From the IMG/VR virus record IMGVR_UViG_2675903433_000018, positions 1 to 22,730 of that record: a DNA stretch of 22,730 nt; one strand, 5' to 3'. The translations under genes and the position numbers were made by a program. Shown piece after piece: positions 3,208 to 6,445 of this stretch. The notes beneath the pieces are model-generated. The model saw nothing but the letters and a program-made list of their open reading frames with translations. It had not been told where the DNA came from and ran no database searches. Position 1 is the stretch's first letter. The number at the start of each line of letters is the position of its first letter. The DNA is from a virus. Lineage: Duplodnaviria; Heunggongvirae; Uroviricota; Caudoviricetes.

Positions 3208-3501
3208 ATGTGGCGCGGTAATAATCATGGCGGAAGTCAGATGATACTTACCGAATATACGTTCGACCACAAAACCAATAAATCACGTTCAGTATATTTG
3301 CTTCGGCACAATAGCCGCGTAAGAAATACCGTTCTGGAGCAAAATCTGACCGTTGAAATGGATAATTTGGGAAACTTCAAGCCAACAATATCGCTTGATG
3401 ATTTTCCGTGTGGTTTAAGCGAAAGAGAAGCAATGCTGAAATTAGCAGAATGGCTACAAAGATTAAGCATTGCTATTGAAGATAACTGGCCTGAACCTTA
3501 A
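3208..3501 (+). CDS. Hypothetical small protein
   Basis: 97-aa ORF in the same plus-strand gene array; start could alternatively be the internal ATG at 3241. Confidence 0.45.
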   Translation: MWRGNNHGGSQMILTEYTFDHKTNKSRSVYLLRHNSRVRNTVLEQNLTVEMDNLGNFKPTISLDDFPCGLSEREAMLKLAEWLQRLSIAIEDNWPEP

Positions 3502-3507
3502 ATTAAT

Positions 3508-3882
3508 ATGATGACACTAAAACATTTTCTTGACCGCCCATTATGGGCGGCAGCCGCAGGCTATGACTTTAATTATATGGATTGCATGTCTTATACTGCC
3601 AATGCATACGACCATTCGTTCAGCCTGCTGTTTAATTCTTTAAGAATATTGCCGGAAACAGAAGTTGGAGAGCTTCATTTATGGATATTGGGCTTTATCG
3701 CGGCTGGAGTTGGTATTGCCGTATGGCCTTTTATTTTCTGGCTGGTGGCTGTTGTAGTGTGGTTTAAGTGCAAGACGTACCGGAAAAAGTATTTCTTAGG
3801 TGATGGAATGACTGATATTGCCAAAATGAACATTGAAAAATGGACTAAGGAATGTGAAAAGAAATGGCGCAAAAAGAAATGA
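3508..3882 (+). CDS. Small membrane protein (hydrophobic helices, Lys-rich C-terminus)
   Basis: 124-aa ORF; segment LWILGFIAAGVGIAVWPFIFWLVAVVVWF is transmembrane-like; weak RBS, so start is uncertain. Confidence 0.4.
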   Translation: MMTLKHFLDRPLWAAAAGYDFNYMDCMSYTANAYDHSFSLLFNSLRILPETEVGELHLWILGFIAAGVGIAVWPFIFWLVAVVVWFKCKTYRKKYFLGDGMTDIAKMNIEKWTKECEKKWRKKK

Positions 3883-4553
3883 CTACTCTAACGACAGCAT
3901 ACTTACAGCAATTGGTATTTTTTGCAGGCGAGGCTACTTGTCATCCTGACGCAAACTATTTATTGGAATTTGAGAGGTTAGCGTCACCCGGTATCGTTCT
4001 GGAACTGGCCCAACAGGTGCTGGCCTTGAGACAAAAAGAGCAACATGAAAGTAATACGTGTAGATTGAATTTTGAGCAGTGGCTGGAACAGCAACGCGGA
4101 AAAATCGATGTGGACTGTGGTTGTGTGTCCACTGAAACATTCATGCACTGGCTGCGGGTAGCTTACGAGGCTGGCAACTATCCGGATATTCCGGATATTC
4201 CGGATAGTTCGGTGCCAGCGCCAGGAAAGGGCGTCACAGGTGAACGTATCCGCATTAAGCCGCATGTTTATCGCGAACTGGTTAACCGTCTCCACGATAC
4301 AGCGATCAAGTGTGCAGGCACCCAGCAATTACGAGAAAGAATTAGCCGTGTTTTGGGCGACGTTATTACGCCAGACCATCATAAACAAGCCGAGAAAAGT
4401 GACCTAGAAAGGTGTCACCTTGAGGCGGCATTAAACATTAAGCCGGGGCATACGCTTGGCATTATCGATGCTCTGTTGGTTCATAAGATGGCCAGGGCTT
4501 TATTGCCGCTGGTGGCTGAAAAGCATGAGGCGGACCATGCCAACGAAAGCTGA
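3879..4553 (+). CDS. Hypothetical protein containing a PDIPDIPD repeat
   Basis: ORF 3864-4553; the ATG at 3879 overlaps the upstream stop (ATGA), suggesting coupled translation; contains a 9-bp tandem repeat at 4183-4208. Confidence 0.45.
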   Translation: MTTLTTAYLQQLVFFAGEATCHPDANYLLEFERLASPGIVLELAQQVLALRQKEQHESNTCRLNFEQWLEQQRGKIDVDCGCVSTETFMHWLRVAYEAGNYPDIPDIPDSSVPAPGKGVTGERIRIKPHVYRELVNRLHDTAIKCAGTQQLRERISRVLGDVITPDHHKQAEKSDLERCHLEAALNIKPGHTLGIIDALLVHKMARALLPLVAEKHEADHANES

Positions 4554-4821
4554 GTTACAGGCGCGCATAGATATTCTTGAAAAAGAGAATGCGAGTCTAA
4601 AAGGAATGCTGGCGCGGGCGGAAAGGGAATTATCAGGCAAATTATTGCCAGAAGAGCTGCCACCAGCAGATATACCTGATCGAGTGTCCTGGTGGATGAA
4701 GTATTTCCGTGCACCGTGGGAGGCGTTTTGGTGCTACGACCATCGCAGATGGTGTGATGAGCTTGATAGCAGTTTCCCCTATTTTGCGGAAGGGAACTCT
4801 TGCCCTGAATGTAGGAGTTAA
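4537..4821 (+). CDS. Small coiled-coil protein with C-terminal Cys/His motif (paralog A)
   Basis: ATG at 4537 (alternative at 4525); C-terminus WWMKYFRAPWEAFWCYDHRRWCDELDSSFPYFAEGNSCPECRS is paralogous to the next gene. Confidence 0.5.
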   Translation: MPTKAELQARIDILEKENASLKGMLARAERELSGKLLPEELPPADIPDRVSWWMKYFRAPWEAFWCYDHRRWCDELDSSFPYFAEGNSCPECRS

Positions 4822-5126
4822 TGATGACCGGCGAGCTTTATTTTAAAATGGCACGGGAGCGGCGTGTGCATCTGGATCGGATATTTCATCTCCAGAAGAG
4901 AGTAGAAGAACTGGAACGTCGTCTGAACTGTTATCCTGTTGATATGGTGTCTGCAATACCGCCGATTCCAATAGAAATGCAGATCCGCCTATGGATGGAA
5001 GAATATGGAATGCCGTGGGAGATATTTTTCTGCTTCGACCATAAACAGTGGGTAGATGAGCTGGATAATAGTTTCCCATATTTCACAGAGAACACATGCC
5101 CAGTATGCAGGAAGAACGGAATATGA
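4821..5126 (+). CDS. Small coiled-coil protein with C-terminal Cys/His motif (paralog B)
   Basis: AGGAG RBS, ATG at 4821 overlapping the upstream stop (TAATG); C-terminus RLWMEEYGMPWEIFFCFDHKQWVDELDNSFPYFTENTCPVCRK. Confidence 0.55.
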   Translation: MMTGELYFKMARERRVHLDRIFHLQKRVEELERRLNCYPVDMVSAIPPIPIEMQIRLWMEEYGMPWEIFFCFDHKQWVDELDNSFPYFTENTCPVCRKNGI

Positions 5127-5647
5127 CAAAATTTGGAAAGCTGGAAGCTCATTTGCTAACTCGTAACTACCGCCATGATATACACCCATATAGACAGTGG
5201 ATCGATGAAAGTGAAGGAGTAGTTACATTCCCTCTATACAGGTTTGATGGGATGTTGGCTGGGTATCAGACATATAGACCAGGTGCTCCTAAGCAGCATA
5301 GCAATCCGAAGATGGCCCGGTATTTCACGCGATCACATGGCAGACAGTTACTTTGGGGAACCTATCTTCCTTTAAAAGATGGCCCAATATGGATAACTGA
5401 GTCTATTTTTAAGAGCGCAGCTGTACACAACGCGGGCGGCAATTCGTGGGCGCTGTTAGGTTCGACTTTCTCCGCAGGATTACGCCGTCAACTTGCGATG
5501 CTGCCGTATGACTTTCGTGTAATAGGTGACAATGATGCGGCTGGTGAATTACTTGTGAAGTCTTTCGGAAAAGGTTTTGTGGCCCCGGATCTTGACGAGC
5601 TACAACCACATGAAGTGTCTCATTTGATTTTTAGCCATAGCCAATAA
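5123..5647 (+). CDS. Toprim-like domain protein
   Basis: ATG at 5123 overlaps the upstream stop (ATGA); contains a conserved Glu (…WITESIF…) and a DxD motif (…VIGDNDAAGE…) typical of Toprim folds. Confidence 0.5.
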   Translation: MTKFGKLEAHLLTRNYRHDIHPYRQWIDESEGVVTFPLYRFDGMLAGYQTYRPGAPKQHSNPKMARYFTRSHGRQLLWGTYLPLKDGPIWITESIFKSAAVHNAGGNSWALLGSTFSAGLRRQLAMLPYDFRVIGDNDAAGELLVKSFGKGFVAPDLDELQPHEVSHLIFSHSQ

Positions 5648-5660
5648 GCATCTCTCCCCT

Positions 5661-5685
5661 TTAAGGCCACAATTAGTGGCCTTAA
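5661..5685. terminator. Hairpin between convergent genes (possible bidirectional terminator)
   Basis: TTAAGGCCAC-aatta-GTGGCCTTAA, a 10-bp perfect stem, between the plus-strand operon end (5647) and the minus-strand gene ending at 5708. Confidence 0.4.
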
Positions 5686-5707
5686 ACAATGTGTTTTCTA
5701 CCTCGAT

Positions 5708-5923
5708 TTAGCCTCTATTATCGTTTTGCATTTCTCTAATCCGGTTCAGAACTACTTCATGCTGGGCTTGGATAGCGGCTTTTTCGTTTTCAAGTCGGGC
5801 AATAGACATCTCTAATTCTTTGCTGTACCAGGCGAGTTGGGCCAGGTTCATCCGGTTGTGGTCGAGAGTTGGAGACACTTCGACGCGATCCCTTTCTTCC
5901 TGCTTTAATGAGAAGAGATTCAT
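5708..5923 (-). CDS. Small coiled-coil protein; positional candidate for P1 hot (theta-subunit homolog), similarity weak
   Basis: 71-aa minus-strand ORF directly downstream of the lxr-like gene; weak resemblance to HolE (SLKQEERDRVEV vs the theta E-DKVNVDL region). Confidence 0.4.
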   Translation of the reverse strand: MNLFSLKQEERDRVEVSPTLDHNRMNLAQLAWYSKELEMSIARLENEKAAIQAQHEVVLNRIREMQNDNRG

Positions 5924-5953: not shown

Positions 5954-6289
5954 TTATTGTTGATGATCCGGTCGCTGCGGCATCCTCGCCAGTATAAATG
6001 GCGGTTCTTTTGAAAACATGAATGTCGGTTCAGACCGTGTTTTTACCCAGCTTGCCTGCTGTCTTTCGGCAAGTTCACAGGCTTCATCATAGTTATTTGC
6101 CAAACCAAGCACGGATGGACGGTCCCACGCGCCACCATTCAGACAATAAACAACAATTTTCCCGTCATGTTCTGTAACCCCATAGGGATGGTCCCACCAG
6201 GCGTCCAGCTGAGCTTTAGAGCGTTTCTCGTTAGGAGTGCAGTCAAAATTTTTGGGCAATACAGGATCGAGAGGAATGCGATTAGGCAT
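5954..6289 (-). CDS. lxr: LexA-regulated protein (P1 lxr-like), divergent from humD
   Basis: 111-aa minus-strand ORF whose upstream region shares the LexA box at 6426-6445 with humD; position matches the P1 hot-lxr-humD arrangement as I recall it. Confidence 0.5.
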   Translation of the reverse strand: MPNRIPLDPVLPKNFDCTPNEKRSKAQLDAWWDHPYGVTEHDGKIVVYCLNGGAWDRPSVLGLANNYDEACELAERQQASWVKTRSEPTFMFSKEPPFILARMPQRPDHQQ

Positions 6290-6425: not shown

Positions 6426-6445
6426 TACTGTACAGATAAACAGTA
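6426..6445. promoter_or_regulatory. LexA box (SOS operator) between the divergent lxr-like gene and humD
   Basis: TACTGTACAGATAAACAGTA matches the CTGT-N8-ACAG core and the TACTGT…ACAGTA consensus; lies 19 bp upstream of the humD ATG. Confidence 0.7.

Follow-up and report, generated by a model that had tools for sequence, protein, structure and literature searches.

Newly found host-takeover and anti-defense functions come in large part from the small accessory proteins that temperate phages make early, and small uncharacterized zinc-binding proteins are common in phage variable regions. Among the closest described systems, DksA/TraR-type proteins combine a coiled coil with a C4 zinc finger and have phage and plasmid versions, also in phage early regions; Ea8.5 of lambda is a homeodomain/zinc-finger hybrid; and the zinc-binding domain of the primase DnaG carries the CHC2 pattern C-x2-H-x17-C-x2-C. 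In a survey of P1-like elements, the stretch from pmgT to humD was delimited as hypervariable region 8, one of eight such regions (PMC9603915). Here, we analyzed two adjacent genes, A and B, located in this variable region of a P1-like phage-plasmid and contained in a 22,730-nucleotide stretch of viral DNA (IMG/VR record IMGVR_UViG_2675903433_000018, positions 1 to 22,730; hereafter, the window). Both belong to PHROG 3797, a family that carries no functional annotation. The analysis showed that A and B are two functional paralogues of ancient separation, not products of a recent duplication, and that they share an architecture consisting of a zipper-like helix of about 30 residues, a proline-rich linker, and an acidic module of about 50 residues with a metal site and an invariant aromatic cluster. 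Their features are as follows.

4537 to 4821, + strand: gene A, 94 amino acids, A-type member of PHROG 3797 (open reading frame [ORF]; RefSeq WP_001142389 at the equivalent position)
4546 to 4635, + strand: predicted N-terminal amphipathic helix of A, residues 4 to 33 (AlphaFold; heptads; conservation among A-type proteins)
4660 to 4818, + strand: C-terminal module of A, about 53 amino acids (conservation; His-to-Cys swaps; AlphaFold)
4732 to 4734, 4741 to 4743, 4801 to 4803, and 4810 to 4812, + strand: predicted zinc ligands Cys66, His69, Cys89, and Cys92 of A (conservation)
4821 to 5126, + strand: gene B, 101 amino acids, B-type member of PHROG 3797 (ORF; RefSeq WP_000988220)
4956 to 5123, + strand: C-terminal module of B, residues 46 to 101 (alignment with A; conservation)
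5031 to 5033, 5040 to 5042, 5097 to 5099, and 5106 to 5108, + strand: predicted zinc ligands Cys71, His74, Cys93, and Cys96 of B (conservation)

Genes A and B and their shared C-terminal module

A sequence-only reading of the window had described two adjacent, translationally coupled small genes at 4525 to 5126, and these are present as described: the stop codon of A (TAA, 4819 to 4821) shares bases with the ATG of B (4821 to 4823) as TAATG, and B is joined in turn to the following gene by ATGA, in which the stop codon of B overlaps the start codon at 5123. The end of that span was correct, but its start probably was not, since A most likely begins at the ATG at 4537 rather than at the alternative in-frame ATG at 4525, because GAGG lies 6 nt upstream of the former, homologues start with MPTK or MATK, and RefSeq annotates the gene in this way. 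This start lies within the upstream PmgT/PmgU-like gene, giving a 17-nt overlap with the end of that gene. As for B, a second ATG at 4824 has a better spacing to AGGAG (4813 to 4817) than the ATG at 4821. The ratio of nonsynonymous to synonymous substitution rates between A and its close orthologues was 0.22 to 0.36, indicating purifying selection. Furthermore, A and B each have full-length single-gene homologues of equal size, and they are therefore not pieces of one broken gene.

Comparison of A with B by BLASTP yielded 28 identities in 54 positions (52%) with one gap, restricted to a shared block of about 52 residues in the C-terminal halves, and the E value of 4e-22 placed the alignment far beyond chance. 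The C-terminal motif quoted in the sequence-only reading was right overall, apart from a one-residue offset at W-x-x-Y and a one-residue indel before C-P-x-C. Twelve positions are invariant among 26 intact close relatives (M54, P60, W61, E62, F64, C66, H69, W72, F80, P81, C89, and C92 in A numbering), and an exhaustive profile search, summarized as 46 representatives, revealed that the ligand pattern C-x2-H-x18/19-C-x2-C is retained in nearly all distant members. In three of these, P0114 (CDKC), P0116 (CHKC), and the P22-like phage SE1 (CPEC), the His ligand is replaced by Cys, and such an interchange at one ligand position is typically what a zinc site would predict. Ligand conservation and the His-to-Cys swaps thus supported, at the level of sequence, the earlier suggestion that the conserved Cys, His, and Cys-x-x-Cys form a small zinc module, and the four conserved Cys/His ligands are arranged as two knuckles, as in structural zinc modules generally. 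We consider this a convincing but unproven zinc site, in which the metal would be zinc and its role structural. The zinc ribbon that the reading had raised as a question was not supported, as the module is not recognizable as one and matched no known fold.

An AlphaFold2 model of A based on a 26-sequence alignment was confident, with a predicted local distance difference test (pLDDT) score of 90.2, and the module modeled alone reached 91.0. The predicted layout consists of a helix at residues 4 to 33 (pLDDT 89 to 95), the proline-rich linker, a helix at residues 48 to 57, and a compact region that contains short bridges and ends in a helical turn at C-P-x-C. In the first helix, L7, I11, L14, N18, L21, L25, A28, and L32 occupy the a/d positions of heptads, with Asn18 at an "a" position, as is commonly seen in zippers that form parallel dimers. 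B contains a comparable but different heptad run. The predicted fold found no structural neighbor among the solved structures searched, and Foldseek against BFVD returned only uncharacterized family members (from phage LASTA, and a 63-amino-acid protein). A sequence-profile search of the PDB produced one marginal match, 3jyg (E = 0.64), which was judged to be chance.

The isoelectric points (pI) of A and B are 5.0 and 5.6, and their modules have net charges of −3 and −5, respectively. Because they are acidic, A and B are unlikely to bind nucleic acids. This bears directly on the possibility that they are nucleic-acid-binding regulators, that is, zipper-dimerized zinc fingers that, like factors of the Ogr/Delta, Mu Com, or DksA/TraR type, govern phage gene transcription or translation. 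A coiled coil joined to a zinc finger is indeed a common layout among regulators, the two genes sit in a probable early operon, several of the invariant aromatic residues could stack on bases, and the N-terminal half of B is basic (pI 9.1). However, the net charge of the conserved module is negative in almost all family members (median, −4.4), neither protein matched Ogr_Delta, zf-dskA_traR, or Com in a Pfam scan at E ≤ 1, and the element often persists although the genes are missing or frameshifted, which would be odd for a core regulator, if not for an accessory one. We therefore regard a regulatory role of this kind as improbable.

Distribution of the family and age of the A/B split

A matched phrog_3797 from end to end (E = 6e-58; residues 1 to 94 on profile positions 1 to 94), and B matched it with residues 18 to 98 (E = 1.6e-36). 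Neither the division into A-type and B-type proteins nor the metal site was described in the libraries searched: Pfam (scanned at E ≤ 1), NCBIfam, and PADLOC contained no match for A or B, PADLOC likewise had none for the adjacent Toprim protein or the PmgT-like protein, and a literature search yielded no paper mentioning the accessions of A and B or PHROG 3797. The exhaustive hidden Markov model search of 1.84 billion sequences gave 46 representatives at 50% identity, nearly all of 54 to 135 amino acids. The family is confined to phages, prophages, and phage-plasmids. In most of its proteins the module follows a helix; in two (P0105 and P0115) it precedes one, and in some it stands alone. The longer members contain no fused domain of known function. 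One member, P0078, is an in-frame PmgT-like::A fusion, and P0004 and P0032 are A/B recombinants. Each of the two exact proteins occurs on about 1000 or more contigs; among the plasmids of PLSDB, an A-like gene is present on 156 and B, at ≥99% identity, on 14, with a diverged pair on Citrobacter plasmids. A strict-pattern scan of genome contigs returned one locus, owing to the strictness of the pattern.

Gene B and the 174-amino-acid Toprim protein were merged in a 90% cluster table via a 185-amino-acid representative, P0058. This is probably a clustering artifact arising from a mis-called gene that spans their overlap, and B homologue counts from that table are therefore unreliable. In addition, phage RCS47 (L003, FO818745.1) contains at 3238 to 3522 a 90% identical, intact A-type gene for which the deposited record has no annotation, and in phage D6 (L004, about 3238 to 3512) the A-type gene is split by a 10-bp deletion and annotated as orf105, of 50 amino acids.

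B-type modules from different elements are 65 to 90% identical to each other, whereas their identity to the adjoining A copy is 40 to 56% and to A-type copies overall 35 to 61%. Synonymous divergence is saturated between A and B, as it also is between distant orthologues. The A/B split is ancient, because B modules are closer to each other than to the neighboring A and synonymous sites are saturated. Each type also has its own conserved N terminus, TKAELQ...MLARAEREL..LLPEELPP in A-type and ELYFKMARERR...VEELE.RL.CY..STIPPI in B-type proteins. Thus, the tandem paralogues described in the sequence-only reading are real, but their diverged N termini do not reflect rapid divergence, since each is conserved within its own type and the duplication is old. 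The "specificity swapping" attributed to such a pair is speculation, with no evidence for or against it.

A survey of loci covered 97 family-bearing sources, with the window itself counted. The A-then-B order was found in four backgrounds, namely E. coli P1-like elements, Citrobacter plasmids (L018, L096, and L020), L092, and L015/L016, the last of which have an opposite-strand lxr-like gene between A and B; a search for a LexA box ahead of B in L015, where B thus stands apart from A, was negative. A occurs alone in 61 of the 97 sources, and B alone in L008/L009 and phage LASTA. The pair is therefore recurrent, but either gene is often solitary. That the tandem order recurs speaks for cooperation of the two genes, and since each is often found without its partner, neither depends on the other.

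These data also bear on the name "antitoxin PHD" given to gene A by NCBI, which would make it the antitoxin of a toxin-antitoxin pair. Apart from the name itself, which many GenBank and RefSeq records carry, only the small size and the two-gene arrangement speak for it. The comparison of A with P1 Phd by BLASTP gave an E value of 0.62, and no match to Phd/YefM or another antitoxin family was obtained in Pfam or NCBIfam, nor any in PADLOC. Moreover, the partner gene is a paralogue and not a toxin, the position downstream of A is taken by B, a variable gene, or nothing, A and B are each solitary in many elements, and a genuine phd-doc pair lies about 2 kb beyond A and B in the same element. The antitoxin assignment is thus effectively refuted and almost certainly wrong, and the name appears to be an annotation mistake passed on from record to record.

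Genomic setting and proposed function

The window is 99.9% identical to non-mobilizable E. coli plasmids of about 92 to 100 kb. It contains humD, phd, doc, pdcB, lpa, and pacAB in P1 gene order, ORFs that agree in size and position with c1 and cre, and nine sites resembling the P1 C1 operator, compared with 0.06 expected by chance; from the gene order and the operator-like sites, it is therefore a P1-like phage-plasmid. P1 itself has pmgV, upfM, upfN, upfO, and hot at the place corresponding to A and B, and lacks both genes. The features flanking the pair are as follows.

3864 to 4553, + strand: upstream PmgT/PmgU-like gene, 229 amino acids (ORF; phrog_21459, E = 1.6e-83)
5123 to 5647, + strand: downstream gene, 174 amino acids, stand-alone DnaG-type Toprim core (phrog_849 "DNA primase," E = 3.5e-53)
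5660 to 5686, + strand: terminator-like hairpin with an 11-bp stem directly after the Toprim gene, where the operon carrying A and B ends

Genes on the + strand are tightly packed from before the window start to 5647; in this long operon of variable region 8, the pair A and B occupies the last-but-one place. In plasmid NZ_CP027590, which is nearly identical, the pap homologue is followed directly by a C1 operator with 1 mismatch. This operator, about 2 kb upstream of position 1 of the window, corresponds in location to P1 OpmgT (Op88), which overlaps the pmgT promoters. Given this operator at its head, the operon would be C1 repressed, so that A and B would stay unexpressed in the plasmid prophage and be produced early upon induction or infection. 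Within the first 3900 positions of the window (+ strand), the same operon carries, upstream of A, Ea22-like, DUF4752, DUF551, and ASCH genes together with several unknowns; these are of the lambdoid "ea/exo-xis/nin" accessory type and take the place of most of P1 pmgT, and it seems that a lambdoid-style accessory module was placed behind the Op88 promoter of P1. Beyond the operon, the lxr homologue of the window consists of two ORFs on the − strand, 5708 to 5923 and 5954 to 6289, encoding 71 and 111 amino acids, which match PHROG 6164 at positions 123 to 193 and 1 to 111, respectively. The related elements L034, L064, and L066 have a single lxr ORF of about 194 amino acids, and the homologue in the window is probably disrupted; RefSeq annotates two hypothetical proteins there. 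At 6428 to 6443, a perfect LexA-box pattern (CTGTACAGATAAACAG) separates the lxr remnants from humD, an arrangement also present in P1.

The PmgT/PmgU-like gene region shows 97.7% nucleotide identity to the pmgT/pmgU region of P1, and the gene is the invariable upstream neighbor of A in all P1-like loci. Since the "pmg" label of the neighboring P1 genes stands for a putative morphogenetic function, A and B might be helpers in virion morphogenesis, and the constant position of A behind this gene in P1-like elements, overlapping its end, would suit such a role. However, both genes are absent from P1 itself, and elsewhere the family occupies early accessory slots of unrelated siphovirus- and podovirus-type prophages with different neighbors. 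Furthermore, a CRISPR interference screen in P1 found genes of this region, including pmgT, pmgU, and pmgV, to be non-essential (PMC10695390). A morphogenetic function is accordingly very doubtful.

Frameshifted copies of A are frequent (P0008, on 80 contigs; P0011, P0014, P0029, P0031, P0038, P0040, and phage D6), and many P1-like elements, P1 included, lack B or both genes. From the frequent frameshifts, the A/B recombinants, and the solitary occurrence of either gene, we conclude that A and B are most likely dispensable. The slots occupied elsewhere are the ea/exo-xis region by xis-int, beside an Ea22-like gene, in lambdoid prophages of Erwinia and Pantoea; the nin region, between ninF and ninG, in a P22-like phage; and positions among small unknown genes in other phages, with LASTA as another context. 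The Erwinia/Pantoea prophages (L007, L010 to L013, and others) also contain, between the A-type gene and xis-int, a conserved, uncharacterized 112-amino-acid protein (6296 to 6634 in L007) with a Cys-rich C terminus (CGRCGD...C...C), which is putatively metal binding.

The gene downstream of B was compared with the primase family. Its 174-amino-acid product covers only positions 145 to 333 of the 435 in phrog_849 and has no zinc-binding or helicase-binding domain, and its homologues are all of 160 to 185 amino acids, including T5 AAX12008 (172 amino acids, in the tRNA region, "DNA primase") and proteins from Kagunavirus and from jumbo phages of Erwinia. The Toprim match also falls over a tRNA nucleotidyltransferase annotation in two marine phages. 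Because the ligand spacing of A and B is CHC2-like, we considered a split primase, in which A and/or B would supply in trans the zinc domain missing from the Toprim core. The ligand pattern resembles that of DnaG, a pattern that is not specific by itself, the Toprim protein matches the catalytic-core part of the primase profile only, B and the Toprim gene are translationally coupled through the ATGA, and in E. coli P1-like elements the Toprim gene accompanies B in 12 of 13 loci with both A and B. Nevertheless, zf-CHC2 gave no Pfam match to A or B at E ≤ 1, hhalign against the E. coli DnaG N terminus gave a probability of 0.09%, the fold predicted for the module differs from a zinc ribbon and has no counterpart among solved structures, and, in contrast to a template-binding domain, the module is acidic. 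The Toprim gene adjoins the family in 12 of the 97 sources (window counted), all of one cassette type; most family members are without a Toprim neighbor, the Toprim loci of T5 (L005) and Kagunavirus (L006) have no family member within flanks of 2 to 2.5 kb, the DNA match of PhiR41_1 is limited to the Toprim part of the query, and in L063 other genes intervene between A and the Toprim gene. Thus, the Toprim gene belongs to this cassette variant and is not a conserved partner of the family. Since the adjacency is not conserved, a split primase is very unlikely, and with the lack of profile similarity and the acidic module we rejected it as the principal explanation.

We favor the reading that A and B are old paralogues that act as early, zinc-stabilized, dimerizing, and dispensable accessory binding proteins, and we hold it with even confidence. 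In this scheme, A and B would be made early, once C1 repression lifts after induction or infection. Zinc would hold the C-terminal module structurally, and the N-terminal helix would dimerize the proteins, as homodimers when one occurs alone and possibly as A-B heterodimers when both are present. The dimer would present two copies of the acidic, aromatic-rich module to a target, a host protein or one of a competing element, which would be bound stoichiometrically; the proteins would be neither enzymes nor DNA binders, and they would represent dispensable accessory ("moron"-type) functions, as their slots suggest. Small, acidic proteins that lack catalytic motifs and are probably dimeric, early, and dispensable would fit stoichiometric binders better than enzymes, DNA-binding regulators, or virion parts.

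Several points weigh against this binding-protein reading. The binder or inhibitor step draws on composition, size, and genomic slot only, with no homologue of known function, while zinc binding, dimerization, and A-B pairing are predictions. The basic N-terminal half of B would make some nucleic-acid contact possible. The C1 operator was seen in the near-identical plasmid, outside the window, and a consensus promoter scan yielded no excess of sites over shuffled sequence, so internal promoters are possible. Finally, no neighbor besides the paralogue is conserved across contexts, except the PmgT/PmgU-like gene in P1-like elements, and the neighborhood thus gives no clue to the target.

A more specific version of the binding-protein reading, which we think unlikely as it stands, is that the module has an undescribed zinc-finger fold and that a zippered A-B heterodimer is an early stoichiometric inhibitor of a host or rival protein, for example, one in DNA handling or defense, with the two subfamilies addressing different targets. 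The in-trans zinc domain for a Toprim mini-primase is less likely than this inhibitor variant.

Comparison with known systems

The contribution of this work is the definition of a family by its two subfamilies, a CHCC metal site, a zipper-like helix, probable early control by C1, and no known fold. The family is common across clinical Enterobacteriaceae, on P1-like phage-plasmids that also spread resistance genes, and databases mislabel it as an antitoxin. Beyond the family definition the finding is a modest curiosity with nothing surprising, small zinc-binding accessory proteins of phages being a familiar kind, but A and B offer a tractable pair of about 100 amino acids each for structural and interaction studies.

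DksA/TraR proteins resemble A and B as small acidic proteins with a long helical element and a four-ligand zinc site. The differences are that A and B lack the zf-dskA_traR match mentioned above, have a single N-terminal helix in place of a helical hairpin and CHCC in place of C4 ligands at a different spacing, and carry the zinc module at the extreme C terminus with no helix after it. The zf-CHC2 domain of DnaG- and T7-type primases has the same ligand order and approximately the same spacing (C-x2-H-x17-19-C-x2-C), and a primase-type Toprim core without a zinc domain lies directly downstream in the window; A and B differ from it in showing no sequence or profile similarity and no predicted zinc ribbon, in being acidic, and in a Toprim adjacency that is not conserved.

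Lambda Ea8.5, which belongs with other small zinc-binding proteins to the exo-xis/ea region of lambdoid phages, is similar in size (93 amino acids), has C-P-x-C close to its C-terminal end, and is likewise unassigned in function. It is also alike in its slot, as some family members lie by xis-int beside an Ea22-like gene and ea-type genes stand upstream in the window. Homology to Ea8.5 was rejected, however, because hhalign gave a probability of 3% over 10 columns, with CPxC alone aligned. In contrast to the homeodomain/zinc-finger hybrid of lambda, A and B are modeled as a single long helix followed by a knuckle-type module.

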